In this document: positions 32,602 to 47,356 of the stretch, one piece after another
Numbering within the stretch: position 1 is the stretch's first letter
Layout of the letters: every line of letters starts with the position of its first letter
From: Cyanobacteria bacterium CYA
Lineage (GTDB): Bacteria > Planctomycetota > Phycisphaerae > Phycisphaerales > UBA1924
NCBI GenBank assembly: GCA_008363215.1
Contig: RHKP01000007.1
Location: 113,713-177,712 of the forward strand
Direction: 5' to 3'
DNA length: 64,000 nucleotides
Notes under the pieces: generated by a model
The model's input: only the letters and a program-made list of their open reading frames with translations
What the model was told of the DNA's origin: nothing
Databases searched by the model: none
Position numbers and translations under genes: made by a program

Positions 32602-33894
32602 TCATCCGGCTTCGAGGACTCGGCCGCTTTCTCCCGCACGGGGAGAGGGATGCGTTGAAGGGAGTTCGTTGAGTGCGGCGAGTTGGCGGCGGGAGTGGAC
32701 GTTGTAGAACTTGTAGAGGCGTTTGATGTGGGCGTGGACGGTGGAGTAGGCCAGGCCGAGGGAGTCGGCGATCTGGTTGTAGGTGAGGCCCTGGAGGAGG
32801 AGGCGTTCGACCTGGTCGCGGCGTGGGGACAGGCGGGTGCGCGGGGTGTAGCGGCGCCTGCGGATGTGAGGGAGAGAGGCGGGGCGTGGGACTTCGTGGC
32901 CGAAGAGGAGGCCGGCGGAGATGTGGGTGACGAAGTGGTTCCAGCCTTCGCGGTCGAGGGTGAAGTATCGGATGCGGTGGCAGTGATGGCAGAGGAAGGC
33001 ATCGGGGATTCGGCAGGGGGCGTCGGGACGGGACTGGGGAGCGGGTGATGGGAATGGCAAGAGGGGGTCGTCGGCGAGGAGGTGGGCGAGGGTGGTGACG
33101 GGGAGGGGGCAGTACAGGCGAGAGACGAGGCGGGAGCAGCGAGGCGCCTCATCGGTCTCGACACGTTGCGTCGAGCGAGCGTCTGCGCCGAGGGGAGAAG
33201 GCAGGATGGCGTCATTGGCTCGGTCGCTTGTGGGCGGCGAACCCCGGCGCGCGCCGATGGGTCGGCCGGGGCATTGGAAGAGCCAGCCGCAGTGGCGTGG
33301 GCGTGCGCCGGCGGCGTCGCGCGGGTCGGCGCGGGTGCGCGGGAAGCGGTCGGCGGTGAGTGTGAGGGTGTCGGGGATGCGGGTGTGGTGGTATTGCCAG
33401 ATGGTGCCCCAGACGGCGTGAGGCGGCCGGCCGATGTTGGCGTTCGGATCGAGCGGAGAGGGAGTCCAGAGGACGGGGACGCGTTTGCCGCGCGAGGAGT
33501 GGATGGAAGGCGGGTCGTAGCGGACGTGGACGAGGCCTTTGTCGAGCCAGTTGCGGAGGGACTCGGGGTGGCGGCCGAGGCGGGCGGCGGCGCGAGTGGC
33601 ACGGATACCCGGCCACGGGATGTTGACAGGTGCGACGAGGGTGCGGATGGCCGGGGTGTAGAGGGTGAGCGCATGCGGGAGGCCGCGCTTGCAGTCGCGC
33701 TCGGAGGCGAGCGCGGCAAGGGCGTCGAGACGGGTGTCGGAAGCGCGGACGCAGAGGCACCATGCGCGGGGCGGACGGGTGAGCGTCGGCGTGGATCGGC
33801 GGGCGGCGCGTACGGCTGCTTCCACGCGGTCGGCGCGTACGCGGCGCCCGAGGCGGGACCATGCGTCGAGCAGGGCGCGATCGAGTTCGTCCAT
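32602..33894 (-). CDS. Atypical regulator with a C-terminal LuxR/GerE-type HTH and a Cys/His cluster
   Basis: ATG at 33894 (MDELDRALLDAW...). The C-terminus LSPRRDQVERLLLQGLTYNQIADSLGLAYSTVHAHIKRLYKFYNV is a GerE HTH. CRIPDAFLCHHCHRIRYF is upstream. The N-terminal ~330 aa are unrecognised. Confidence 0.7.
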   Translation of the reverse strand: MDELDRALLDAWSRLGRRVRADRVEAAVRAARRSTPTLTRPPRAWCLCVRASDTRLDALAALASERDCKRGLPHALTLYTPAIRTLVAPVNIPWPGIRATRAAARLGRHPESLRNWLDKGLVHVRYDPPSIHSSRGKRVPVLWTPSPLDPNANIGRPPHAVWGTIWQYHHTRIPDTLTLTADRFPRTRADPRDAAGARPRHCGWLFQCPGRPIGARRGSPPTSDRANDAILPSPLGADARSTQRVETDEAPRCSRLVSRLYCPLPVTTLAHLLADDPLLPFPSPAPQSRPDAPCRIPDAFLCHHCHRIRYFTLDREGWNHFVTHISAGLLFGHEVPRPASLPHIRRRRYTPRTRLSPRRDQVERLLLQGLTYNQIADSLGLAYSTVHAHIKRLYKFYNVHSRRQLAALNELPSTHPSPRAGESGRVLEAG

Positions 33895-34085
33895 GGCGGT
33901 GCTCCTGTCGGGGGGAGCAGCGCGAGGGTAGCCGCATGTGAGGCGAGCAGAAGGGCAAATCGGCGGAGGGGCGCGTTTGTGCGCGCGCGGGCGCGTGATT
34001 GGACAAAAAAAGCACGCGCCCGTTTCGGGGCGCGTGCGTGCAATCACCCAACCAAATTCATCTGACCAGCGATGCCTTCACCCGA

Positions 34086-34616
34086 TCAGCGATCCGATTC
34101 GACCCGCTCACTCGAGCGAACCACGATTTCCGGCGGCTCCTGTTCGCGGACCAGTTTCGGCTCGGTGATGGTGCGCGTTTCGGCCTGATCGCGGATGCGT
34201 GTGCCTTCCTCGATGTAGCCCAGGGCGCGGGCGATCAGTTCGCCGCGGCTGGAGGCGCCGAGTTTGCGGTGCAGGCTCTTAACGTGGTCGTGGACGGTGT
34301 GCGGGCTGCGTTCCAGGTCGTCGGCGATCTGGCGGACGCTCTTTCCGAGCACGAGTTGCTCGAGCACCTGCTGCTCGCGGACGGTCAGCCACGTCTGGGC
34401 GGAGTCCTGGGCCGACCCGAGCGCCAACTTGGCGCGGTGGGAGAGCAGGGGGAGGATGGCTTGAAGGGCGGCCTGATTTTCGGGGCTGATCCGGCGTGGT
34501 CCGACGGCCCCGTGGCCCATCAGTCCGATTTCCACGACGATGTAGCGGCGCGGGGTGCCGTCATCGAGTGCGGCCACGCCGATGAGCAGGTCGGAGATGT
34601 CCGTGCCCACCCACAT
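34086..34616 (-). CDS. LuxR/GerE-family transcriptional regulator (probably the 3' part of a frameshifted longer gene reaching ~35032)
   Basis: LTVREQQVLEQLVLGKSVRQIADDLERSPHTVHDHVKSLHRKLG is a GerE HTH. The frame stays open and coding-like for a further 81 codons upstream of the first ATG (to a TGA at 34862-34860) with no start codon. Confidence 0.7.
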   Translation of the reverse strand: MWVGTDISDLLIGVAALDDGTPRRYIVVEIGLMGHGAVGPRRISPENQAALQAILPLLSHRAKLALGSAQDSAQTWLTVREQQVLEQLVLGKSVRQIADDLERSPHTVHDHVKSLHRKLGASSRGELIARALGYIEEGTRIRDQAETRTITEPKLVREQEPPEIVVRSSERVESDR

Positions 34617-35290
34617 GGAGCCGATGGGGGCGGTGCGCCAGAGTTCGGTTCCCGCCAGACGTGCGGCCGAGGCTGCGGTGATGCCTGTCGGGCCCAGTCC
34701 GTCGAGGCGGAAACCGAGTTCTCGGAGTCGATCGGCGCGGGACCGGACGGAGAGTTCGACGCCGCTCGATTCGTCGAGGGGGGAGTCGTCTTCGGTCCAT
34801 GCGGGGGCGGCCGGCTGAATGGCGGCGGCGCGGGAGGTACAGAAACGCGTCCGGACAGTTCAGCGCGGAGGATCATGGCGCAGACGCGGCTAGGGGCCAT
34901 GAGTACGCTGAGCGCGCGTGCGGCGCGGTCGCTCCAATCGAGCGTGGCGACCGCGGGCAGCCCGCACAATCTTTCTGAAGCACGCACCACCGACTCCATC
35001 GCCGCGGCGATTGCTTGCCCGCTCTCACCCATCGCGACCTCCTTCAGACCACGACTCAAAGACTCAGTCCGTTGAATCTGTGCCATGTCCCAAGAACACT
35101 CGGCTGGCCGGCGCCCGGGGGAACAGTTTCCGGGGGTGCGTACACCCGTTCATGTGGCCAAGCCCCGCCAGCGGAAGCGTCTATGGGCGATAGTCTAGCC
35201 GAAGTGTGCCCGAATCGGCATGGTGACGAGCGGAATCGCGCAAAGAAAGCGGCCGCCCAAACAAGTGGGGATCCTTCCGAGCCTTACAGC

Positions 35291-36673
35291 ATGGGGATTT
35301 TGCCGCATCTTCGTCCGAGAACCTTTTCATCCCGCCCTGGGCGCGCGTTCGGGGGGAACATTTCGCAGCGGCTACCATACACCACGAACGCACACCCGGC
35401 CAACTCACGGCACATTCTCATCGTCGGCGGCGGGTTCGCCGGGCTGGCCTGCGCGCGGGCCTTGGCGCGGGCGCCTGTTCGCATCACCCTGGTCGATCGG
35501 AACAACCACCATCTGTTCCAGCCGCTGCTGTACCAGGTCGCCACTGCGGCGCTGAGCCCGGCCGACATCGCTGCCCCCATCCGGGGTGTGCTGCGGCGCA
35601 ACGCGCGGGCCGAGGTTCTGCTGGCGGAGGTGGAGTCGATCGACGCGGAGGCCCGCCGCGTCGTGGCGGGCGGACGGACGCTCACCTACGACACGCTCGT
35701 GCTGGCGAGCGGCACGGAGCACTCGTATTTCGGGCATGAGGAGTGGGAGGCCAGCGCACCGGGGCTCAAGTCGATTGACGAGGCGCTGGAGATCCGGCGT
35801 CGCATGCTGCTGGGCTTCGAGCGTGCCGAGAACGAGCCTGACGCCGACGAACGCCGTCGTCTGATGACCTTCGTGATCGTCGGGGGCGGGCCGACGGGCG
35901 TGGAGATGGCCGGCGCCATCGGCGAGATCGCCACCTGCGCCATCCCCCGCGACTTTCGGCACATTGACACGCGTTCGGCGCGCATCGTGCTGATCGAGGC
36001 CGGCCCGCGACTGCTTCCCGCCTTTCCGGAAGAACTCTCCGCCCGCGCGCAGCGCGACCTGGAATCGATCGGCGTCGAGGTCCGCACCAACACGCGCGTC
36101 ACGGACATTTCGCCAGAGGGCGCCATGGTCGGCGATGCGCTGATCGGCTCGCGTCATGTCATTTGGGCGGCCGGCGTTCGCGCGTCGTCACTTACCGCAC
36201 AACTTCCCTGCGAGCGTGACCGGAGCGGACGCGTGCTTGTGGGCCCCGACCTGTGCGTGCCGGGGCACCCGGAAGTCTTCGTCCTGGGCGACATCGCGCG
36301 CGTGGTGGATCCGAAAACGGGGCTTGAAGTCCCCGGCGTCGCGCCGGCGGCCATGCAGATGGGGCGCTACGCGGCTCGACAGATCGACCGCGAAGCGCGC
36401 GGCGTGCAGACGCCCGCGGAGCGGCCCGCATTCGTCTACCGCGACAAGGGGCTGCTTGCGACGATCGGGCGCGGCAAGGCCGTGGCGGCGATCGGCAAGA
36501 GCCGATTTGCCGGCCTGCCTGCGTGGCTGCTGTGGGCCCTCGTCCACGTCTATTTCCTGATCAACTTCCGCAACCGGCTCTCGGTCATGCTCGGGTGGGC
36601 GTGGGCGTACCTCTTCTTCGAACGCGGTGCGCGACTGATTACGGGGCAACGCGTGAGCCAGCCTCGCGGCTGA
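35291..36673 (+). CDS. ndh: Type II NADH dehydrogenase (NDH-2)
   Basis: HILIVGGGFAGLACARAL (first GxGxxG), NHHLFQPLLYQVA, and FVIVGGGPTGVEMAGAI (second dinucleotide fold). Start chosen at ATG 35291. Confidence 0.9.
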   Translation: MGILPHLRPRTFSSRPGRAFGGNISQRLPYTTNAHPANSRHILIVGGGFAGLACARALARAPVRITLVDRNNHHLFQPLLYQVATAALSPADIAAPIRGVLRRNARAEVLLAEVESIDAEARRVVAGGRTLTYDTLVLASGTEHSYFGHEEWEASAPGLKSIDEALEIRRRMLLGFERAENEPDADERRRLMTFVIVGGGPTGVEMAGAIGEIATCAIPRDFRHIDTRSARIVLIEAGPRLLPAFPEELSARAQRDLESIGVEVRTNTRVTDISPEGAMVGDALIGSRHVIWAAGVRASSLTAQLPCERDRSGRVLVGPDLCVPGHPEVFVLGDIARVVDPKTGLEVPGVAPAAMQMGRYAARQIDREARGVQTPAERPAFVYRDKGLLATIGRGKAVAAIGKSRFAGLPAWLLWALVHVYFLINFRNRLSVMLGWAWAYLFFERGARLITGQRVSQPRG

Positions 36674-36877
36674 AGGAGTGACTTTGTGTGCCGCCGACTT
36701 TCGACTTTGGAAGTCGGTGCGGGCGGGTCAGGGGGCACACCGAGTTCGCAAAGCCGAACTCGGTGGGGCGGGACCTGGTGTCACCTGCCGGGTCGGGGGC
36801 TGGAGGCTGGGGGAGGGTCCGTATGATCCCGCTGCGTGGCAGGATTCCGGATCGTCCGGGTCTGCCGGAGGTGGAGT

Positions 36878-37675
36878 ATGGGGCAAGGTCGGCGTCACGA
36901 ACGCCGGGAGACCAGCGATCGTCACGTCCTTGAACTGGAGATGCTGCCGCAGCCGGATGACGTGACGTGCGGGCCGACGTGCCTGCACGCGGTGTACCGG
37001 TTCTGGGGTGAAGACGTGCCGCTGGAGGAGGTGGTGGGCTCGGTGCATCTGCTGAACGCGGAGGCCGGGCGAGGCACTCTGGCGGTGAATCTCGGCTCGC
37101 ACGCGCTCAAGCGCGGCTACAAGGCGACGCTGTACACGTTCAACCTGCACATGTTCGATCCGACGTGGTTTGCCGGGGAGCGGACGGAGCGGGCGGCGCT
37201 GCTGCGGAGCAAACTGGAGGCCCAGGCGGAGGCGAAGGCGAAGGGGAACGTCAAGTTCGCGGTGGCCACCCGTGCCTACATCGAGTTCCTCGGGCTGGGG
37301 GGCGAGATCCGGTTTGAGGATCTGACCGGCCGGCTGATTTCCGGGCACATCCGGGCGGGGTGTCCGGTGCTGGTGGGACTGAGCGCGACGTATCTGTATC
37401 GGGCGGCGCGTGAGTACGGTCCCGACGACATCGAGGATGACGTGCGGGGATTGCCGGCGGGGCATTTCGTGGTGCTGCACGGGTACGAGCCTCGGGTGCG
37501 GCGGCTGCACGTGACCGATCCGCTGGCCGACAATCCGGGCTTTGCTGCCCGCAACTACACTGTTCCGATGTCGCGGCTGGTCCCGGCGATCATGCTGGGA
37601 GTCCTGACGTATGACGGGAACCTGCTGGTGATCGAGCCGGCAGGGCGTCGGGATGAGATGGAACGTCGAACATGA
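36878..37675 (+). CDS. Peptidase C39-like (papain-fold) cysteine peptidase
   Basis: ATG at 36878 follows GGAGGTGGAG. LPQPDDVTCGPTCL (Gln...Cys), GHFVVLHGY (His) and HVTDP (Asp) follow the C39-like order. Its stop overlaps the next start (ATGA at 37672). Confidence 0.75.
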   Translation: MGQGRRHERRETSDRHVLELEMLPQPDDVTCGPTCLHAVYRFWGEDVPLEEVVGSVHLLNAEAGRGTLAVNLGSHALKRGYKATLYTFNLHMFDPTWFAGERTERAALLRSKLEAQAEAKAKGNVKFAVATRAYIEFLGLGGEIRFEDLTGRLISGHIRAGCPVLVGLSATYLYRAAREYGPDDIEDDVRGLPAGHFVVLHGYEPRVRRLHVTDPLADNPGFAARNYTVPMSRLVPAIMLGVLTYDGNLLVIEPAGRRDEMERRT

Positions 37676-39123
37676 AGCCACTTGTCATCGTGGATTCGCC
37701 CAAGCGCTGGCCGCTCCACATACCGGGAACCGAACTGGTCTCGACGTATGACTACCTTTCGGATCCGACTTTTGCGCAGGGGCCTGGGCGGAAGGTGTTC
37801 AATTTGTGTCGCTCGCTGCGATACCAGTCGTCGGGCTACTACGTGTCGCTGCTGGCCGATGCGCGTCGGCACCGCCCACTGCCTTCGGTGTCGGCCATCC
37901 AGGGGTTCAAACTGGCGCCGGTGATCCGCGCGGCGTCGGAAGAACTGACCGACCTGATCCAGACGAGTCTGCGGCGCATCCGCTCGGACAAGTTTGAACT
38001 GTCGGTGTACTTCGGGCACAACGTATCAGCCGGGCACGAGCGGCTGGCGGCGGGGGTTTTCAACGCTTTTCCGGTGCCGCTGCTGCGGGCTCGGTTTGAG
38101 CGTGACGGAACGTGGCGTCTGACGTCGGTGCGGGCGATCGGTCTGGGTGAGGTTCCCGAGTCGCATCGCCCCTTCGTGGTGGAAAAGGCGGAGTTGTACC
38201 TGCGGCGCCGTCCGCGGCGGAGCCGCAGTTCACCTCCGACCAAGTATGACCTGGCGATCCTGCATGATCCGGCCAATCCGCTGCCCCCTTCGAACAAGAG
38301 GGCGCTCAAGAAGTTCATCGAAGCGGGCGAGTCGCTGGGGATCGGGTGCGACCTGATCGAGCGTGACGCCTACGGTCGGATTGCCGAGTATGACGGGCTG
38401 TTCATCCGGGAGACGACGGCGGTGAACCACTACACCTACCGGTTTGCGCGCCGAGCGCTGGCCGAAGGGCTCACGGTCATCGACGACCCGCAGTCGATCG
38501 TGCGTTGCACGAACAAGGTGTTTCTGGCCGAGACGCTGACGCGCCACCGCCTGCCCGTGCCCAAGACGGTGATTCTGTCGAAGGAGAACGCGCTGGAGGC
38601 GATCCGTTCGATCGGGTATCCGTGCGTGATCAAGCAGCCTGACAGTTCGTTCTCAGCGGGGGTATCGCGGATCGACTGTGAGGAGGAGGTCGAAGGGAAA
38701 CTGCACGACCTGTTCGAGGTTTCCGAGTTGCTCATTGCGCAGGAGTTCGTGCCGACCGATTTCGACTGGCGCGTCGGGGTGCTGGGCGGTCGGGCGCTTT
38801 GGGTGTGCCGCTACAACATGGCGCCCGGGCACTGGCAGATCGTCAAGCGTGACGACAAGGGCGTGCACGAGGGCTCGTTTGCGGCGTTGTCGGTCGACGA
38901 CGCGCCCCGGGATGTGGTCAAACTGGCGGTGCGATCGGCGGCGTTGATGGGCGACGGGCTGTACGGCGTCGATCTCAAGGTAATCAACGGGAAGGCTGTT
39001 GTGATCGAGGTGAACGACAACCCCAACATCGACGCAGGGGTGGAAGACTCGGTGCTCGGCAGTTGGCTGTACGAAGCCATCATGCAGCACTTCCTGCGCA
39101 AGTTTGAGGAGCAGCGTCCATGA
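37672..39123 (+). CDS. RimK-like ATP-grasp amidoligase with an N-terminal RLAN-type domain
   Basis: The C-terminal half (…KVFLAETLTRHRLPVPKT...YPCVIKQPDSSFSAGV...LIAQEFVPTDFDWRVGVLGG...YGVDLKVINGKAVVIEVNDNP) is an ATP-grasp fold. About 200 additional N-terminal residues are present. Its stop overlaps the next start (ATGA at 39120). Confidence 0.88.
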   Translation: MKPLVIVDSPKRWPLHIPGTELVSTYDYLSDPTFAQGPGRKVFNLCRSLRYQSSGYYVSLLADARRHRPLPSVSAIQGFKLAPVIRAASEELTDLIQTSLRRIRSDKFELSVYFGHNVSAGHERLAAGVFNAFPVPLLRARFERDGTWRLTSVRAIGLGEVPESHRPFVVEKAELYLRRRPRRSRSSPPTKYDLAILHDPANPLPPSNKRALKKFIEAGESLGIGCDLIERDAYGRIAEYDGLFIRETTAVNHYTYRFARRALAEGLTVIDDPQSIVRCTNKVFLAETLTRHRLPVPKTVILSKENALEAIRSIGYPCVIKQPDSSFSAGVSRIDCEEEVEGKLHDLFEVSELLIAQEFVPTDFDWRVGVLGGRALWVCRYNMAPGHWQIVKRDDKGVHEGSFAALSVDDAPRDVVKLAVRSAALMGDGLYGVDLKVINGKAVVIEVNDNPNIDAGVEDSVLGSWLYEAIMQHFLRKFEEQRP

Positions 39124-40394
39124 GCAGGGCAACCATGACCGCGGGCGCCGGCTATTCGTATCCCCTTGGGCTGTTCGAGGGATACGGGCTTGAACTGGAG
39201 TACATGATCGTCGACGAGGCGACGCTGGACATCCGCCCGGTGGCCGACCAGTTGTTCCGGGCGGCTGCGGGGCAGGATGCCTCGTGGCATCTGCCGGAGG
39301 GGGAGGACGGGCTGATGGGCTGGTCGAACGAACTGGCGCTGCACGTGCTTGAGTTCAAGACCACCCGGCCCACGCCGCGCCTGGACGGGATGGAGCAGCG
39401 ATTTCAGCAGCAGGTGTGCGAGGCTGAGAAGTTGCTCAAGCCGCTGGGCTGTCGCCTGCTGCCGACGGGGATGCACCCGTGGATGAACCCGGATCTGGAG
39501 ACGCGGCTGTGGCCTCACGAGAACAACGAGATTTACGCGGCCTACGACCGGATCTTCGGGTGTCGCGGGCACGGGTGGAGCAACCTTCAGAGCAGCCACA
39601 TCAACCTGCCGTTCGCCAATGACGAGGAGTTCGGGCGTCTGCACGCGGCGGTGCGGCTGGTGCTTCCGCTGCTGCCGGCGCTTGCGGCCAGTTCTCCGGT
39701 GGTGGACGGGAAGTGGTCTCCGGTGGCCGACTACAGGCTGGAGGCGTATCGCACCAACTCGAAGCGAGTGCCGGCGATGGCGGGGTCGTTGATTCCCGAG
39801 CCGGTGTTCACGCGGGGCGATTATGAGCGGGAGGTGCTGGGCAAACTGTACACGGCGATGGAGGGGCTGGACCCCGAGGGGGTTTTGCGGCACGAGTGGG
39901 CCAATGCTCGGGGATGCATCGCGCGGTTCGATCGCGGGTCGGTGGAGATCCGCCTGCTGGACTCACAAGAGTGCCCGCTGGCCGACATGGCCATCGTGGC
40001 GCTGGTGGGCGAACTGGTACGGGCGCTGGTGGAGGAGCGCTGGCTGACCTACAAGCAGCAGAGGGGCATTGCGACCGAGCCGCTGGCCAACGTGCTGGTG
40101 GACACGATGCGCTACGCCGAGCGAGCGCGGGTGAGCGAGCGTCGCATGCTGGAGGCGATGGGGATCAAGCGCACGATGACCTGGGCCAGCGACGTGTGGG
40201 GCGAACTGCTCGAGGAACTGATGCCGTCGCACCCGGTGTGGACGCCGGCGCTGCGGCAGATGCTCGCGGCCGGGACACTGTCAACGCGCATTTCGCGGTT
40301 GATCCGGCGCTATCCGACGCGTGGGGAACTGCACGGCGTGTACGCCGAACTGGCCGACTGCCTGCGAAGCGGGAGCCTGTTCCGTGTACGGTGA
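39120..40394 (+). CDS. Glutamate-cysteine ligase family 2 (GCS2/YbdK-like) carboxylate-amine ligase
   Basis: GLELEYMIVDEATLDIRP...WSNELALHVLEFKT...HINLPF...SVEIRLLDSQECP follows the GCS2 pattern. Confidence 0.88.
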   Translation: MSRATMTAGAGYSYPLGLFEGYGLELEYMIVDEATLDIRPVADQLFRAAAGQDASWHLPEGEDGLMGWSNELALHVLEFKTTRPTPRLDGMEQRFQQQVCEAEKLLKPLGCRLLPTGMHPWMNPDLETRLWPHENNEIYAAYDRIFGCRGHGWSNLQSSHINLPFANDEEFGRLHAAVRLVLPLLPALAASSPVVDGKWSPVADYRLEAYRTNSKRVPAMAGSLIPEPVFTRGDYEREVLGKLYTAMEGLDPEGVLRHEWANARGCIARFDRGSVEIRLLDSQECPLADMAIVALVGELVRALVEERWLTYKQQRGIATEPLANVLVDTMRYAERARVSERRMLEAMGIKRTMTWASDVWGELLEELMPSHPVWTPALRQMLAAGTLSTRISRLIRRYPTRGELHGVYAELADCLRSGSLFRVR

Positions 40395-41106
40395 GGAAAC
40401 GAGCATTGCGGCGCCGGCGGTGCTGATTTCCTGCGAACACGCGGGCAACGTGGTTCCGGAGGAGTATCGCGAACTTTTCGCGCACGCGCGCGATGAACTG
40501 GAGAGCCATCGCGGGTTTGACGCGGGCGCGCTCGAGGTGGCGCTGCGCCTCTCGGGCATGCTCGCCGCCCCGCTCTACCACACCTGCGTCACGCGGCTGC
40601 TGGTGGAGTGCAACCGGTCGGAAGATCACGCCGACCTGTTCAGCCGTTTCACGCGTCTGCTCCCCGATGATGAGAAGCAGCGCATCCTGGCGACCTACTA
40701 CCACCCCCACCGCTCGGCGGTGTGTCGGCAGGTGGAGATGTGGACCGCCCGCGGCCGCCCGGTTGTGCATGTCGGGGTCCACTCCTTCATCGATGAGTGG
40801 CCGGGACAGGACCGGAATTTTGAGATCGGACTGCTCTTCGACCCCGCCCGGATCTGGGAGGGCGAGATCTGCGCTCGCTGGGCCGAGGAAATCAGCGCTT
40901 TGTGGCCTCAGATCAGGGTGCGGGCCAACGAGCCCTATCTGGGTGTGGACGACGGGTTGACGACGACGCTGCGGGACCGGTTTGCGGGAATCGCGTACGC
41001 CGGGATTGAAGTCGAGTTGCGACAGGGGTTTCTGCTTTCTGAGGCGGTCGCGGAGGTGGGCTGGGTTCTCGGGGCGGCATTGAGACAGGTCCTGGGAGAG
41101 GATTGA
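40384..41106 (+). CDS. N-formylglutamate amidohydrolase (FGase) family protein
   Basis: GTG at 40384 overlaps the GCS2 stop. VLISCEHAGNVVPEEY...HRGFDAGAL...LLVECNRS...VHVGVHSF is characteristic of the FGase family. Confidence 0.82.
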   Translation: MYGEETSIAAPAVLISCEHAGNVVPEEYRELFAHARDELESHRGFDAGALEVALRLSGMLAAPLYHTCVTRLLVECNRSEDHADLFSRFTRLLPDDEKQRILATYYHPHRSAVCRQVEMWTARGRPVVHVGVHSFIDEWPGQDRNFEIGLLFDPARIWEGEICARWAEEISALWPQIRVRANEPYLGVDDGLTTTLRDRFAGIAYAGIEVELRQGFLLSEAVAEVGWVLGAALRQVLGED

Positions 41107-41316: not shown

Positions 41317-41790
41317 TTGAGCGCGAGAAGAATGCGCACGACGGGCCGGCGGGCAACCGCGTGCTCCACGATGGGCAACGGGACGTGGACGGCGGAGATG
41401 ATTCCGGCGAAGATCACGCCGCCGGCCGTTCGCGTGAGGCAGCCAGCGGGGGGACGCGTCCGCTTCGGCCCGGGCAAGATGACCAGCATGGGCAACTGCG
41501 CCGACCTGGTGGTGGCGTTCAACGGGCAGGTGCCGAACGAACGGCTGCTCAAGGACGCGTCCGGCGGAGGCACGGTGATTCTGCTCGAGAACAAGGAGGC
41601 GGCCGACCCGGGCGAGCAGATCCGCGACATGTACAACTCGGCGGTGGAAGGCTTCGGCTCGCGCGGACTGATTGTGCATGAACCGGTGGTGCATGAGGCC
41701 TGCCTGGAGTTCGTCCATGACCCCAGCCGGCGATGCTGGGCGCGGTTGCAGAGGCGGCGCACGGGTGCGGGCATTCGTCGGCGGGTTTGA
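41317..41790 (+). pseudogene. Possible remnant of a 2-oxoacid:ferredoxin oxidoreductase (POR/KorA gamma-type domain)
   Basis: ...GGRVRFGPGKMTSMGNCADLVVAFNGQVPNERLLKDASGGGTVILLENK... resembles the catalytic-domain segment (aDlLVAFN...l..GG.vi). It is far too short for the family, and neighbouring frames carry further fragments. Confidence 0.3.
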
Positions 41791-42579: not shown

Positions 42580-44541
42580 TCAGGCACGGTCGATTGTGTC
42601 CTTCCCGACGGCCAGCAGCGGCACGCCGGCCCCGTGGCGCACGTCGGAGATGGTCTGGCCGTGCACGAGGTCGGCCAGCCCGCGGTGCCCGTGCCCGCCG
42701 ACGACGAGGATGTCGAGTTGCTCTCCCCTGGCGATGCGGACCAGTTCGCGTGCCACCTGTCCGTAGCCGAGCACGCCGCGAATGCCGGCGATGTTGCGTC
42801 CGCCCAGGCGGGCCTGCAGTTGAGCGACCAGTTCGCTCATGTAGCGTTCGTCTTCGCGGCTTTCGGTGTCGCCGGTCTGCTGCCCGTACCACTGCCCGCC
42901 GACCCCTTCGACCACGTGGATGAGCAGCAGTTCGGCGCCGTGGATCTCCGCGAGGCTGATGGCCTCGGACAGCATGCCCGAGTCCGAGGCCTTGGCTTCC
43001 AGCGCCACGCCGACGCGGGCGAAGCGGCGCGTTGCCTGCAACGCGCGGGCGGACACGTCGGCAGCCGCCACGGGCGGGGGAGGGACATGGTCGCGTTCGG
43101 GACGGAAGATCATCCACACCAGCATCGCGCCCAGGGCCAAGGCCGGCGGAATTGTGCACACCATCACGAGCCAGCCCCATGAACCCGCGGCCCTGGACCA
43201 CGAGCCGATTTCTCCGACCACCAGCAGCACGTTGAGCACGATGATGATGCCGGCGATGATCCACGCCAACACCTGGACCCACGCGCGGTTGACGAACGGG
43301 CCCATCTTCGGGCGGCTGGAGGTGAACTTGATGAGCGGAACGACGGCGAAGGGCAGTTGCATGCTGAGAATGACCTGGCTGAGAATGAGCAGTTTGTAGG
43401 AGCCGGTGTTGCCCATGACGCCGATGACGATCATCGCGGGAACGAGGGCGATGGAGCGCGTGATGAGCCGTCGCAGCCACGGGCGGATGCGGAAGTGCAG
43501 GAAGCCTTCCATGGTGATCTGCCCGGCCAGCGTGCCGGTCAGCGTCGAGGACTGCCCGGCACAGAGCAGCGCCAGCGCGAAGGCGACGGGCGCCAGCGCC
43601 GTGCCGAGGATATCGTCGAGCAGCGCGTGCGCCTGGTCGAGTTCATTGACCTCGATGCCGTTGCGCCAGAAGGTGGCGGCCGCGAGGATGAGAATCGCGG
43701 CGTTCACGAAGAACGCGGCGTTGAGGGCCACGGCCGAGTCGATGAAGTTGTAGCGGCAGGCCTGACGGATCCCCTGCCGGGTGCGCTGTACGTTGCGTGT
43801 CTGCGCCAGCGAGGAGTGCAGATACAGGTTGTGCGGCATGACCGTGGCGCCGAGCATTCCGATGGCCACGTACAACTCCGCCCGGCTGAGCGAGCCGGGC
43901 ACGAACCCCGAAGCGACGCCCGACCACTCGGGCCTGGAGATGAAGATCTGGAAGATGAAGCACACGCCGATGGTGAAGACCAGTGCGAGGATGAAGGCCT
44001 CCATCTTGCGGATGCCCAGACGCTGCAGCCCGAGCAGCACCAGCACGTCGAAACCGGTAATCAAGACGGCAACTTCCAGCGGGATGCCGAACAGCAGGTT
44101 GAGCCCGATCGCCGTGCCGAGCAGTTCGGCCAGGTCCGTGGCGGCGATGGCGACCTCGCACAGGAAGAAGAGCACCCATCGCACGGGGCGCGGGTACGAG
44201 TCACGGCATGCCTGGGCCAGGTCGCGCCCCGTGACCAGCCCCAGGCGGGCCGACAGCGTCTGCAGGAGCACCGCCATCAGGTTGCTCATCAGGAGAATCC
44301 AGATGAGTCTGTATCCAAAACTGGCGCCTGCCTCCAGGTCGGTCGCCCAGTTGCCCGGATCCATGTACCCGACGGACACCATGTATGCCGGTCCGAGAAA
44401 GGCGAAGAGGCGTCGGAACAGGCGGGGGTGATCGACACCGACGGAGCGATGCACGTCGACCAGCGACGGGTCAGGGAACGGCGCCGTGGCGCCGCCGCCT
44501 GCGGGCGAACCTGATGCCGACGCCAGATCATCCTGACGCAT
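42580..44541 (-). CDS. mntH: Nramp-family divalent metal (Mn2+/Fe2+) transporter fused to a C-terminal universal stress protein domain
   Basis: GPAYMVSVGYMDPGNWATDLEAG is the Nramp DPGN motif and about 11 TM helices follow. The C-terminal ~150 aa (…LLLIHVVEG...DILVVGGHGHRGLADLVHGQTISDVRHGAGVPLLAV) is a USP fold. Confidence 0.9.
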   Translation of the reverse strand: MRQDDLASASGSPAGGGATAPFPDPSLVDVHRSVGVDHPRLFRRLFAFLGPAYMVSVGYMDPGNWATDLEAGASFGYRLIWILLMSNLMAVLLQTLSARLGLVTGRDLAQACRDSYPRPVRWVLFFLCEVAIAATDLAELLGTAIGLNLLFGIPLEVAVLITGFDVLVLLGLQRLGIRKMEAFILALVFTIGVCFIFQIFISRPEWSGVASGFVPGSLSRAELYVAIGMLGATVMPHNLYLHSSLAQTRNVQRTRQGIRQACRYNFIDSAVALNAAFFVNAAILILAAATFWRNGIEVNELDQAHALLDDILGTALAPVAFALALLCAGQSSTLTGTLAGQITMEGFLHFRIRPWLRRLITRSIALVPAMIVIGVMGNTGSYKLLILSQVILSMQLPFAVVPLIKFTSSRPKMGPFVNRAWVQVLAWIIAGIIIVLNVLLVVGEIGSWSRAAGSWGWLVMVCTIPPALALGAMLVWMIFRPERDHVPPPPVAAADVSARALQATRRFARVGVALEAKASDSGMLSEAISLAEIHGAELLLIHVVEGVGGQWYGQQTGDTESREDERYMSELVAQLQARLGGRNIAGIRGVLGYGQVARELVRIARGEQLDILVVGGHGHRGLADLVHGQTISDVRHGAGVPLLAVGKDTIDRA

Positions 44542-44584
44542 GGTGACCGCTCCCTGCCTTGACGAAGCCCCCGGACACGCAGAA

Positions 44585-44626
44585 TGTAGCCACACCTACA
44601 ATAGCACTGAGAGAGGAGCGCGTCAA
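44585..44626 (-). promoter_or_regulatory. Candidate sigma70-type promoter with an overlapping DtxR/MntR-like operator upstream of mntH
   Basis: On the minus strand: TTGACG (44626-44621), 17 nt, TATTGT (44603-44598). The palindrome TGTAGGTGTGGCTACA (44600-44585) overlaps the -10 and resembles the TAGGTTAGGCTAAC core of DtxR-family boxes. Confidence 0.45.
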
Positions 44627-44784: not shown

Positions 44785-47097
44785 TCAATGCGTCGCGAAC
44801 AGGAAGCCGATGAGCGTGGCGCTGATGGCCACCATCGCGGCCATGAGCGCTTCACCGGCCACCAGGCCCGACGCCACGGGGATGGTGTACTTCTCGGCCG
44901 TCTTCTTGTGGGCCAATTGCCAGGCCCAGGCGATGACTGCACCGATGGCAAACCCAAGCGCGTTGTACCAGGGCACGACCCACGCCAAGCCCAGGCCCAT
45001 GGCCGAAGGCACCCAATGGCGTGCCTTGATCGGCAGGGCGGACTGAATCAGCGGCAGGGCGATCCCGATCACGCCTCCCACCAGGATGGCCATCTGTGCC
45101 GTCGCGGGGATGGAGTGCAAGCCCTGGGTCAGCGCGCGGGCCACGGCTTCCCACATGATTGCGGCCGGCGGGTTGAAACTCTCAAACGTCTTCACGTCGG
45201 GCACCATGAGGTACCAGGCCGGGACGATCACCAGCGTGCCGAAGAAGACGCCGATGAACTGCGCCAGGAACTGCTTGCGAGGATTGGCGCCGAGCAGATA
45301 CCCGCTCTTCAGGTCAGTGAGCAGGTCAGCCGACGCTCCGCCCGCGGCGGCGGTCGTGCCCGCTGACATCAGGTTTGGGACGATCTGCCCCTTGGCCAGC
45401 ACGGCGTAGACCAACTGCGTCACCTTGCCCATCGCACCGATCGGGGTGGTGTCCGTCTCGCCGGTCGCGCGGCAGCACACCAGCGCGATCGGATAGGTCA
45501 TCACCACCGACACCAGTCCGAGCCACCAAGACATGTGGAAGGCCAGCATGGACAGCACCATGATGCCGATCGTGATCGGGAGCATGCCGATGATGAACCA
45601 TGAGTTGGGCACTTCCAGGCGCTGCATTTCGTCAAGATCGGCGGCCGAGGCGCCCGTCGCTCCGCGGCCTTCCCTGCGGAACGCGCGGACCAGTGTCTTC
45701 CATCCCATCGCCACGGCTGTCAGGCTTGAGAACACCATGATCGACGTGCCGCCCCACAGCGCCCACTGCACGGGATAGAACCCGAACCTGGCGTTCGGAT
45801 TGCCGATGTAGGTCCACTTGACCTTGGGGGCTTTTTCGGCCGTCGCCGGAGCGGCGGGGGCTGCGTCCTGTCCTTCCGGGGGTGCGGGAGGCTGGATCAA
45901 TGCGGGATCGACTCCCAGTTCGATCAGGTTCCGTCGCCACGTGTCCTCATCGACATACGTCATCGTGTTCACGTCCAGACCCTTGCGGATCTCGCGTCCG
46001 AGTTCCTTGACGGAGGTGACATATGTCTGGTTGATGCCCCACAAGTCCTCGGTGCGCTGAATGGCGGCAACGGCCTGCGGGTTGTTCCGGAGATGATCCA
46101 TGTCGTACTGGAAGATTGCCGGAGCGGCGACGAAATACAGGAGCGCCGACCCCACGAGCATCGAGAGCGACACGCGCAGCCCGACGATCATGCCCGCCGC
46201 CACGAGCAACATGCTCGGCTCAAATGCCCAGTTGGCCACGTTGACATTGCGGAACTTGCTGCTCAGGATCGAACTGGGCCAAGGGAACAAATCGGGCATG
46301 CGGAAGGGAAACTGAGACAACGTCGCCAGCGTCTGGTCCTTGACCTTGCCGACGCCATGCAGCGCCTCGATGACGGCCGGATAGGTGCGGTAGAGAGCCA
46401 GCGCCATGCCCGCGAACAGCGCGATGATGAGCGCCCGTGCTTTCTGGGCCGCCTCACGTCCGTGTGAATACAGCGACCGCAGCGTCGTTGCCGCGGCGAT
46501 GCCGCTGGGGAAACGCAACTGCTCGTGATTGATCATCTGTCGCTTCATCGGCACCGCGATGAACACGCCCAGCGCCGCGGTCAGGAACACGAACGGCACC
46601 AGGTAGTACCAGGCAAAGTGCTCGCGTTGAATGAGCAGCAGAGCGCCGAAAGCCGTTCCGATCGTGCCGCCGGTGGAATACCCGGCGGCCGAGGCCGTCG
46701 ACTGCATGCAGTTGTTCTCAAGGATGGTCATCTTGCTCAGGCGGTGCCCCGAGGCCGCACGCAGCGTGTTCCAGATCACGTATGACAGGATGCACGCGGT
46801 GATCGCCACGCCGAACGCCCATCCCAGTTTGATGGTCGTGTACAGGTTCGAGATGGACATGGCCATCCCGATGATCGCTCCCATCACTACCGCCCGCACC
46901 GTCAACTGCGGCACACGATCGCCACGGTAGATGTGCGTGTACCAGAAGTGATCCTTCTCCTCGGGGGTCGCGTCCTCGGGCAGCGCAGGGAGTTCCTCAA
47001 ATGTCGGCGCGATCTGGTACGTCTCCAGATCAAACTTCTCTCCTGACGGCTGGGACTGCGGGACGCCAGGACGAGCAGGACTGGGCTGGTCACTCAT
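44785..47097 (-). CDS. OPT-family oligopeptide/metal-chelate transporter
   Basis: ATG at 47097. ...QLTVRAVVMGAIIGMAMSISNLYTTIKLGWAFGVAITACILSY... and ...GTTAAAGGASADLLTDLKSGYLLGANPRKQF... are OPT-superfamily hallmarks. Confidence 0.9.
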   Translation of the reverse strand: MSDQPSPARPGVPQSQPSGEKFDLETYQIAPTFEELPALPEDATPEEKDHFWYTHIYRGDRVPQLTVRAVVMGAIIGMAMSISNLYTTIKLGWAFGVAITACILSYVIWNTLRAASGHRLSKMTILENNCMQSTASAAGYSTGGTIGTAFGALLLIQREHFAWYYLVPFVFLTAALGVFIAVPMKRQMINHEQLRFPSGIAAATTLRSLYSHGREAAQKARALIIALFAGMALALYRTYPAVIEALHGVGKVKDQTLATLSQFPFRMPDLFPWPSSILSSKFRNVNVANWAFEPSMLLVAAGMIVGLRVSLSMLVGSALLYFVAAPAIFQYDMDHLRNNPQAVAAIQRTEDLWGINQTYVTSVKELGREIRKGLDVNTMTYVDEDTWRRNLIELGVDPALIQPPAPPEGQDAAPAAPATAEKAPKVKWTYIGNPNARFGFYPVQWALWGGTSIMVFSSLTAVAMGWKTLVRAFRREGRGATGASAADLDEMQRLEVPNSWFIIGMLPITIGIMVLSMLAFHMSWWLGLVSVVMTYPIALVCCRATGETDTTPIGAMGKVTQLVYAVLAKGQIVPNLMSAGTTAAAGGASADLLTDLKSGYLLGANPRKQFLAQFIGVFFGTLVIVPAWYLMVPDVKTFESFNPPAAIMWEAVARALTQGLHSIPATAQMAILVGGVIGIALPLIQSALPIKARHWVPSAMGLGLAWVVPWYNALGFAIGAVIAWAWQLAHKKTAEKYTIPVASGLVAGEALMAAMVAISATLIGFLFATH

Positions 47098-47356
47098 GGG
47101 ACGGGCACTCCACCGGCGCACCGCGGCCTCCATCGCCGAGTGCGACGATCCGTTACGCTACCACGTTTTGCTCGCCCCCGCCACTGGCCCCGGAATCGTC
47201 ATGGAACCCATCGCCCGCCCGGCGCCGCGCATCAGCACCCTGCGCAACTGCGGCCGAACCGGCTCCACGACGAACGGGGCACGGCCGCGAGAGGCCGAGC
47301 CTTCCGAGCCGGACTGAATACAATCCTGTGTCAAGCCAAGGAAGGAGTTGCTCACC

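Follow-up and report, generated by a model that had tools for sequence, protein, structure and literature searches.

Four overlapping genes and their products

The window analysed here, a stretch of 64,000 nucleotides (nt) from contig RHKP01000007.1 of a Phycisphaerales assembly (GCA_008363215.1, positions 113,713 to 177,712 of the forward strand), carries a cassette of four overlapping genes on its plus strand. These encode a C39-like papain-fold cysteine peptidase (36878-37675, 265 amino acids (aa), ATG start), a ligase combining an RLAN domain with a RimK-type ATP-grasp module (37672-39123, 483 aa), a carboxylate-amine ligase of the GCS2 family (39120-40394, 424 aa) and an N-formylglutamate amidohydrolase-like hydrolase of the FGase family (40384-41106, 240 aa, GTG start). 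From the sequence, a Shine-Dalgarno-like GGAGGTGGAG can be read at 36867-36876 (+), ending 1 nt ahead of the peptidase ATG. Stop and start codons overlap as ATGA on the plus strand both between peptidase and ligase (37672-37675) and between ligase and GCS2 gene (39120-39123), while the FGase GTG at 40384, which is in frame with its open reading frame (ORF) and has a GGGAG 8 nt upstream, lies in an 11-nt plus-strand overlap with the end of the GCS2 gene (40384-40394, stop codon TGA at 40392-40394). Three other metagenomic contigs bearing the same locus, with an identical peptidase, were independently called with proteins of 265, 483, 424 and 240 aa and the same overlaps, the gene caller also picking the GTG start for FGase. 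Hence, the four ORFs, the ATGA junctions and the GTG start are all as claimed in an earlier reading made from the DNA letters alone (the sequence-only reading). Matches to the identical locus were found in metagenome assemblies only. The G+C content of the window is 62-70%, and the nearest homologues are proteins from metagenome-assembled genomes of Phycisphaerales and Phycisphaeraceae, which assigns the window to an uncultured planctomycete within the class Phycisphaerae. None of the four proteins has a predicted signal peptide or transmembrane segment, so that all of them look cytoplasmic. In Pfam profile searches each protein was assigned above the gathering score of its family, corroborating the domain assignments that the sequence-only reading had proposed.

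The peptidase matches Peptidase_C39_2 (PF13529) with 33.2 bits against a cut-off of 24. Alignment with 25 homologues from many phyla revealed an invariant tetrad of Q25 (36950-36952), C31 (36968-36970), H196 (37463-37465) and D214 (37517-37519), all on the plus strand, and the AlphaFold2 (AF2) model (pLDDT 78.5) adopts a papain-type fold, both in line with the papain-fold peptidase with Q/C/H/D motifs that had been read from the sequence. Immediately ahead of the catalytic histidine, the model shows a disordered acidic loop (residues 176-193). The family profile of the peptidase finds the C39 domain of ComA (PDB 3k8u, E=1.8e-5) with the glutamine and cysteine aligned, and the best fold matches are the double-glycine leader peptidases 6mpz, 3k8u and 5xe8 (TM-score 0.72-0.74 over the target), followed by the phytochelatin synthase Alr0975 (E about 5e-4, TM-score 0.41-0.50 over the target), xylellain and the pseudomurein isopeptidase PeiR. 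A phytochelatin-synthase-like transpeptidase is retained as a minor rival only, the Alr0975 match being significant but clearly weaker than those to C39 enzymes.

In the ligase, Pfam recognizes RLAN (PF14401, 146.4 bits) at about aa 27-171 (37750-38184, plus strand) and RimK (PF08443) at aa 281-454, the latter together with other ATP-grasp models. Between RLAN and the ATP-grasp part lies a basic linker, RRRPRRSRSS. According to the AF2 model (pLDDT 82), the complete ATP-grasp module spans about aa 190-483, and the C-terminal approximately 300 residues superpose on ArgX, LysX and RimK with TM-scores of 0.75-0.83 over the target. The ATP-binding lysines and the Mg-binding D/E-x-N motif align with RimK from Pseudomonas aeruginosa (7qyr), and K282, K321, E358, D434, E446 and N448 are invariant in the homologue alignment. 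In the fold search with the whole protein, which is dominated by the ATP-grasp part, solved structures cover at most about half of the query (TM-score over the query ≤0.49), leaving the N-terminal RLAN region without explanation by solved structures; likewise, the sequence profile of this region matches nothing in the PDB. The RLAN domain is consistently basic (median isoelectric point 9.4, net charge +6) and the ATP-grasp part is acidic (median isoelectric point 5.1). Nearest among the NCBIfam models are LysX, rimK_fam, MptN and CofF, which, like ArgX, represent enzymes that attach a dicarboxylic amino acid at a carboxylate of the glutamyl type. The ligase stays under the cut-offs of the curated RimK models (TIGR00768, 76.2 versus 143.4 bits; NF007764, 22.2 versus 331 bits) and is far below those for LysX and MptN, while scoring 18.6 against a cut-off of 272 for GshB and 23 bits against 850 for CphA. 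With scores this far below the curated RimK cut-offs, a specificity for glutamate would follow from clade membership only. Sequence identity of the ligase between phyla amounts to 50-70%. Among 744 RLAN-bearing cluster representatives (393 of them at E≤1e-10), the dominant architecture is RLAN plus ATP-grasp with about 480-500 aa, and GNAT-RLAN-ATP-grasp as well as RLAN-ATP-grasp-GNAT fusions are also found.

The third protein was assigned to GCS2 with 91.9 bits (cut-off 21), this being its sole Pfam match, as Pup_ligase was not found. It reaches only 49.6 of the 176.4 bits required for the YbdK model TIGR02050, lies far under every cut-off of the GshA equivalog models in NCBIfam and shows weak similarity (E about 0.01) to plant glutamate-cysteine ligase structures. 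Residues E25, E27, H75, E78, R264, R269, R272, E276 and R278 are invariant among 25 homologues, as is an N-terminal G-x-E-x-E motif. By its model scores and structure matches, the protein is a member of a divergent subfamily. The fourth protein belongs to PF05013 (75.6 bits in Pfam) and has the uncharacterized Atu2144 (PDB 2odf, E=1.3e-20) as nearest solved structure. Its C17-E18-H19, H42, D46, N77-R78-S79, H129, H133, D153, E209 and E211 are invariant, thus including the motifs CEH, NRS, HxxxH and ExE. This protein has no NCBIfam match, and thus none to a curated HutG model, and a hut operon context is absent from the window, where the neighbours are an NDH-2 type NADH dehydrogenase, LuxR-type regulators, a DUF454 protein, an Nramp-Usp (universal stress protein) fusion and an OPT transporter.

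Conservation, variants and surroundings of the cassette

For assessing conservation, one genome per GTDB species was scanned, and the RLAN-ligase gene was found in at least 596 species. From these, a locus sample of 80 species-level genomes covering at least eight phyla was fetched, in which neighbours were detected by tblastn with the four window proteins and, separately, by all-against-all clustering of ORFs. The sample includes Planctomycetota (Phycisphaerae, Planctomycetaceae, Pirellulales, Gemmatales and Isosphaeraceae), Alpha-, Beta- and Gammaproteobacteria, Gemmatimonadota, Acidobacteriota, Nitrospirae, Desulfobulbaceae, Desulfuromonadales, Balneolales (Rhodohalobacter and Aliifodinibius) and Parachlamydiaceae. 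Counting only loci with room for the respective gene, about 72 of 79 have the peptidase gene immediately upstream of the RLAN-ligase gene, 68 of 73 have GCS2 immediately downstream of it and 40 of 68 have FGase after GCS2. Gene order and strand are the same across loci, and at either end of the ligase gene, towards the peptidase as well as towards GCS2, genes are most often spaced by a -4 overlap. The translational coupling claimed earlier is correct. Moreover, the identity of the partner proteins to those of the window co-varies with the identity of the ligase (r=0.90 for the peptidase, 0.88 for GCS2 and 0.77 for FGase), as expected of a unit that is inherited together.

From these frequencies, it can be concluded that the core of the cassette consists of peptidase and RLAN-ligase, usually with GCS2, while FGase is an optional, accessory member. 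Where FGase is missing, the gene following GCS2 differs from locus to locus, these genes being mutually unrelated, and ORF clustering did not reveal any other conserved neighbour family beyond small subsets of closely related loci. The four-gene arrangement described in the sequence-only reading hence stands as a real operon with recurrent gene order, but not as a conserved unit, since FGase is often absent and the peptidase-ligase pair also occurs without GCS2. The latter is the case at three loci (L043, L045 and L077), and at four others (L033, L034, L038 and L073) the ligase is found alone. In L033, L034 and L038, which belong to Isosphaeraceae or Phycisphaerales, the RLAN ligase directly follows a conserved ORF of approximately 1500 aa (cluster 39). 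Legionella adelaidensis encodes ligase, GCS2 and FGase in this order, annotated as 'RimK family protein', 'glutamate-cysteine ligase family protein' and 'N-formylglutamate amidohydrolase'. A stand-alone RLAN ligase of 529 aa, annotated as 'RimK family alpha-L-glutamate ligase', is present in P. aeruginosa (L081, 4902-6491) between pagP plus a short-chain dehydrogenase/reductase gene and an aminotransferase gene, adjoining the aatJQMP genes for a glutamate/aspartate ATP-binding cassette (ABC) transporter.

A further variant was detected on plasmid p1 of Azospirillum brasilense Sp7 (L083, 5884-8591), where a gene for a fusion of GNAT with DUF3335, a second 'Peptidase_C39 like' family, takes the peptidase position and overlaps the downstream RLAN ligase gene (TGATG), neither GCS2 nor FGase being encoded after the ligase. 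In a profile comparison, the Q...C, RRGY/F, GHFVV/PHWVV and DP motifs of the window peptidase family and DUF3335 align, albeit at an E value of about 9e-4 and low probability, with one side represented by a single sequence. The A. brasilense pair is a second form of the peptidase-ligase partnership, in which GNAT replaces GCS2. Thus, a second amide-forming enzyme, either GCS2 or GNAT, usually accompanies the core of peptidase and ligase.

Several apparent peptidase-RLAN and RLAN-GCS2 fusions among the cluster representatives, which are public protein predictions (P0268, P0242, P0324, P0340 and P0296), were dismissed as frameshift artefacts of the overlapping genes because they contain garbled out-of-frame stretches; surveys of domain architecture may easily be misled by such frameshifted read-throughs of cassette genes. 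A conserved protein of approximately 390 aa with a C-terminal membrane anchor (cluster 10) is encoded divergently upstream of the cassette in 11 loci, among them L002, L005, L007, L010, L013, L017, L018 and L031, with almost all of the 11 belonging to Phycisphaerales; it is missing at that position in the window.

In the 700-nt flanks, no small ORF that might represent a precursor or tag gene is conserved beyond closely related genomes, nor is a conserved exporter, regulator, tailoring enzyme or immunity gene found beside the cassette by ORF clustering of the loci. Likewise, a double-glycine leader-peptide gene was not found near the cassette, and the flanks lack a conserved small ORF or ABC transporter. 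The Rfam search gave no notable match, a sigma-70-like promoter was not found, and terminator-like sites are present only upstream, within the NDH-2 gene. A role as defence system was discarded, as none of the four proteins matches PADLOC models. The NDH-2 ORF (35015-36673, +), which was called on other contigs as 460 aa with a start near 35291, ends 204 nt ahead of the cassette on the same strand, making co-transcription possible. Further upstream, two LuxR/GerE-type regulators are encoded on the minus strand (32602-34047 and 34086-34616). Downstream, an ORF of 152-157 aa (41317-41790, +) begins about 225 nt past FGase; it was also called by the independent gene caller, has no Pfam match and lies outside all conserved clusters. 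It is followed by genes for a 671-aa Nramp metal transporter with a C-terminal Usp domain (42580-44595, -) and, 3.7 kb downstream of the cassette, an OPT-family oligopeptide transporter (44785-47133, -). The OPT transporter, Nramp-Usp fusion, DUF454 protein, NDH-2 and LuxR-type regulators are particular to this lineage, and the OPT transporter and the LuxR regulators were rejected as cassette partners for not being conserved at other loci.

Proposed function and alternatives

Ligases of the RimK clade phosphorylate a glutamyl-type carboxylate and then add the amino group of glutamate or alpha-aminoadipate, while ligases of the GCS and GS folds activate the gamma-carboxyl of glutamate. On the hydrolytic side, enzymes of the FGase clan cleave N-acyl-glutamate or N-acyl-aspartate bonds, and papain-fold enzymes cleave peptide or isopeptide bonds. 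The cassette is tentatively proposed to work in the cytoplasm as a self-contained writer/eraser module, with the RimK-type ligase and its dedicated cysteine peptidase at the centre and an acidic (iso)peptide containing glutamate as the product. In the following scheme, all substrates, the sequence in which the enzymes act and what RLAN does are inferred. GCS2 would activate a carboxylate, which going by its family would be the gamma-carboxyl group of glutamate, and join it to an amine, resulting in a gamma-glutamyl-type primer, cap or branch, which in variant systems might be supplied by GNAT. The RLAN-RimK ligase would then add L-glutamate stepwise onto a terminal carboxylate, with the basic RLAN domain possibly gripping the growing polyanionic chain or an acidic acceptor. 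The C39-like peptidase, kept at a fixed ratio to the ligase by translational coupling, would trim or cut the chain and may in addition stimulate the ligase, as RimB does with RimK. Where present, the FGase-like enzyme could strip a terminal N-acyl-linked glutamate and thereby recycle glutamate.

The closest precedent for such a partnership is found in Pseudomonas, where RimB binds RimK and lifts its ATPase activity about four-fold, shortens the glutamate tails of RpsF and is required by RimK for synthesizing free poly-alpha-glutamate both in vitro and in vivo, with chain lengths of up to about 28-36 residues in vitro; hybrid RimB-RimK proteins exist as well (PMC11957791). RimK and RimB form a writer/eraser system for the ribosomal protein S6 (PMC10092738, PMC11957791). 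The analogy to this pair drawn in the sequence-only reading is sound and is even strengthened by the dual role of RimB in S6 trimming and free poly-alpha-glutamate synthesis (PMC11957791). As the window peptidase is unrelated to RimB and yet holds the same position relative to the ligase, a non-homologous replacement within a like partnership may have occurred. The reversible peptide tagging or small-peptide pathway suggested earlier from the sequence stays at the level of an inference.

Several points weigh against this proposal. None of the computations run identifies a substrate, and the glutamate specificity of the ligase would be predicted from its clade. GCS2 and FGase enzymes are known to act on single amino acids or N-formylglutamate and not on polymers. 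As there is no homology between the C39-like peptidase and RimB, the likeness to the Pseudomonas pair would be functional only. A ligase and a hydrolase made at fixed ratio and acting on a free peptide could run a futile cycle unless regulated. In addition, for a protein that probably belongs to the family, FTT0178 of Francisella tularensis (named 'rimK'), the only deletion reported did not attenuate virulence (PMC2675058); with 490 aa this protein has the length of RLAN-ligases and not that of RimK.

As to the product of the proposed module, a free oligo- or poly-glutamyl peptide is given slight preference over a protein tail, because two of the four families have small-molecule precedents only, Ngg-like GNAT fusions exist and no target gene is encoded nearby. 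A protein acceptor encoded elsewhere comes close to this in likelihood, given that the solved ligases most similar in structure all target the C-termini of proteins and that the sequences are very highly conserved from phylum to phylum. The product might also be an intracellular one that has not been described so far, either a gamma-glutamyl-primed or side-chain-decorated poly-alpha-glutamate, that is, a split-enzyme counterpart of cyanophycin synthesis with RLAN anchoring the chain and the peptidase making primers, or a hitherto unrecognized protein tag of bacteria that is served by specific writer and eraser enzymes. In both cases the peptidase would be a regulated, possibly redox-sensitive switch. 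We consider this extension speculative and rather improbable.

Dedicated protein tagging is an alternative that deserves attention, though its chances are doubtful. Here, a protein whose gene lies outside the cassette, for instance S6 or a carrier resembling LysW, would be glutamylated by the ligase at its C-terminus or at an acidic tail, GCS2 would add an isopeptide-linked group in a manner comparable to PafA, the C39-like peptidase would expose or erase the tag and FGase would take the last residue. GCS2 and the Pup ligase PafA indeed belong to one superfamily, but a Pup_ligase match is absent in the Pfam search. The three closest solved ligases, RimK, LysX and ArgX, all target the C-terminal glutamate of a protein, and the ligase identity of 50-70% across phyla fits a universal, conserved target, and the basic RLAN domain could dock an acidic protein; however, neither a target gene nor a small tag ORF is conserved nearby. 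C39 peptidases cut polypeptides, the nearest folds of the window enzyme being double-glycine leader peptidases, and the RimK/RimB pair writes and erases on S6 (PMC10092738, PMC11957791), whereas small molecules are the known substrates of GCS2 and FGase enzymes. The GNAT fusions and replacements, finally, recall dipeptide synthesis of the Ngg type as much as protein acetylation.

The small-molecule precedents for FGase and GCS2 also lend themselves to a short metabolite, namely a tri- or tetrapeptide resembling glutathione or N-acetylaspartylglutamate (e.g., gamma-Glu-X-Glu) that might serve as thiol buffer or osmolyte. In such a pathway, GCS2 would act ahead of the ATP-grasp ligase like GshA ahead of GshB, and the peptidase would be an opposing amidase or a phytochelatin-synthase-like transpeptidase. 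GCS fold plus ATP-grasp is indeed the combination of GshA and GshB, and in GspSA from Escherichia coli a papain-like amidase is coupled to an ATP-grasp-like synthetase. The significant fold matches of the peptidase include Alr0975, whose structure was solved with an acyl-intermediate of glutathione, but the TM-score over the target is 0.72-0.74 for C39 enzymes compared to 0.41-0.50 for the phytochelatin synthase. Also, the ligase attains only 18.6 against the GshB cut-off of 272, and a basic extra domain of approximately 180 aa is not obviously required for tripeptide synthesis. The GNAT-RLAN-ATP-grasp fusions resemble Ngg, the maker of an N-acetyl dipeptide (PMC8070244), and had suggested Ngg of the N-acetylglutaminylglutamine amide (NAGGN) pathway, formed by AsnO and Ngg, as a characterized RLAN protein. 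This lead was dropped, as tblastn with a GNAT-RLAN-ATP-grasp query against all PLSDB plasmids did not give a Sinorhizobium match, and hence none to pSymB of S. meliloti, at E≤1e-3, the presence of pSymB among the searched plasmids being unchecked, which points to an Ngg devoid of the RLAN domain; in the window itself, neither GNAT nor AsnO is encoded. Overall, a short metabolite as the product seems unlikely. The proposal of a writer/eraser module for a glutamate-containing peptide has also to be seen against an exported natural product, such as a siderophore or antibiotic, whose assembly would fall to two stand-alone ligases and whose maturation would fall to the peptidase. A passage in PMC4431377, citing Iyer 2009, places linked ATP-grasp and COOH-NH2 ligases in secondary-metabolite pathways, but exporter, regulator, tailoring and immunity genes are not conserved beside the cassette, the OPT transporter of the window is not conserved at other loci and conservation of the sequences across phyla is above the usual for such clusters, making this explanation very improbable. 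Independent action of four genes that are adjacent by chance is practically negligible. While each family also occurs alone, as exemplified by the stand-alone RLAN ligase of P. aeruginosa, the co-localisation for which the sequence-only reading had proposed a neighbourhood comparison recurs in the 80-locus sample, with order, strand and overlaps shared by at least eight phyla and with correlated gene divergences, by which chance adjacency is effectively refuted.

Comparison with known systems

Neighbourhoods of RLAN-ATP-grasp and COOH-NH2 (GCS2) ligases were reportedly predicted by Iyer, Abhiman, Burroughs and Aravind in 2009 (Mol Biosyst 5:1636), a study from which the RLAN Pfam family is said to have been defined. 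In these neighbourhoods, RLAN is reportedly fused to a RimK-like ATP-grasp domain, with GCS2, FGase and a papain-like peptidase as partners, and the window shows no essential difference from this arrangement. The later literature is consistent with this earlier prediction as far as two citing papers go: according to a passage in PMC4431377, Iyer 2009 described operons in which ATP-grasp ligases are linked to COOH-NH2 ligases or GNATs and which probably catalyze successive peptide ligations, and a passage in PMC10318531 states, citing the same work, that the C39-like DUF3335 is often fused to GNAT. In literature searches with RLAN, PF14401, the corresponding COGs and RimK along with FGase, C39 or carboxylate-amine ligase, no experimental work was found, in agreement with the sequence-only reading, by which a product or target had not been established.

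The cassette occurs in hundreds of species, including Legionella, Azospirillum, Thiobacillus, Blastopirellula, a Parachlamydiaceae genome and probably Francisella, and is highly conserved. If its product were identified, four widespread annotations that now read 'family protein' would gain a function, and it would become apparent whether the pairing of a RimK-type ligase with a peptidase is a general principle that arose repeatedly, with non-homologous peptidases. A protein tag, a polymer or an acidic peptide metabolite of a new kind might come to light in this way. As minimal unit, peptidase plus RLAN-ligase, with or without GCS2, is suggested by the present analysis. The appeal of the system lies in a tractable biochemical question and not in a surprise in the sequence.

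In common with the RimK/RimB system of Pseudomonas, a RimK-clade ATP-grasp ligase is encoded together with a dedicated endopeptidase. However, the window peptidase is a C39-like cysteine enzyme whereas RimB is retropepsin-like and aspartic, the ligase does not reach the RimK cut-offs and bears RLAN as an additional basic domain, and the set is enlarged by GCS2 as second ligase and by a hydrolase of the FGase type, while RimA is missing. With the C39 double-glycine leader peptidases ComA, LahT and PCAT1, its nearest relatives by sequence profile as well as by fold, the peptidase shares the Q/C/H/D tetrad at similar spacing; in contrast to them, it is a stand-alone, cytoplasmic enzyme not fused to an ABC transporter. 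Compared to ComA, where about 79 residues separate the catalytic cysteine and histidine, it has an insert of approximately 80 residues, extending this distance to 165.

Glutathione systems, in which GshA and GshB act along with phytochelatin synthase or glutathionylspermidine synthetase/amidase, likewise combine GCS-fold and ATP-grasp ligases with a papain-fold Cys-His-Asp enzyme, but the window proteins satisfy no curated GshA, GshB or YbdK model and the peptidase is closer to C39. In the cyanophycin synthetase CphA1, elongation of an acidic backbone is the task of an ATP-grasp domain, and its side chains are decorated by a second ligase; the polymer is anchored by an N-terminal domain, and primers come from a hydrolytic activity. 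In the cassette, comparable activities would be distributed over separate proteins, the second ligase has a GCS fold instead of the Mur-ligase fold, and the ligase is far from the CphA model (23 bits versus a cut-off of 850). Other than in pupylation by PafA, Dop and Pup, a Pup_ligase match and a conserved small Pup-like ORF are absent from the window, and the FGase protein shares fold family and active-site residues with HutG but has neither the hut context nor a match to the HutG model. As an RLAN domain N-terminal to ATP-grasp, adjacent GCS2 and peptidase genes on the same strand and FGase within the operon are all found together, the window harbours a Phycisphaerales member of the recognized, predicted RLAN-ATP-grasp cassette type. 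Beyond the sequence-only reading, the present analysis shows that peptidase and RLAN-ligase form the core, that FGase is optional, that GCS2 and GNAT are interchangeable and that RLAN is basic, and it brings the RimB precedent up to date.

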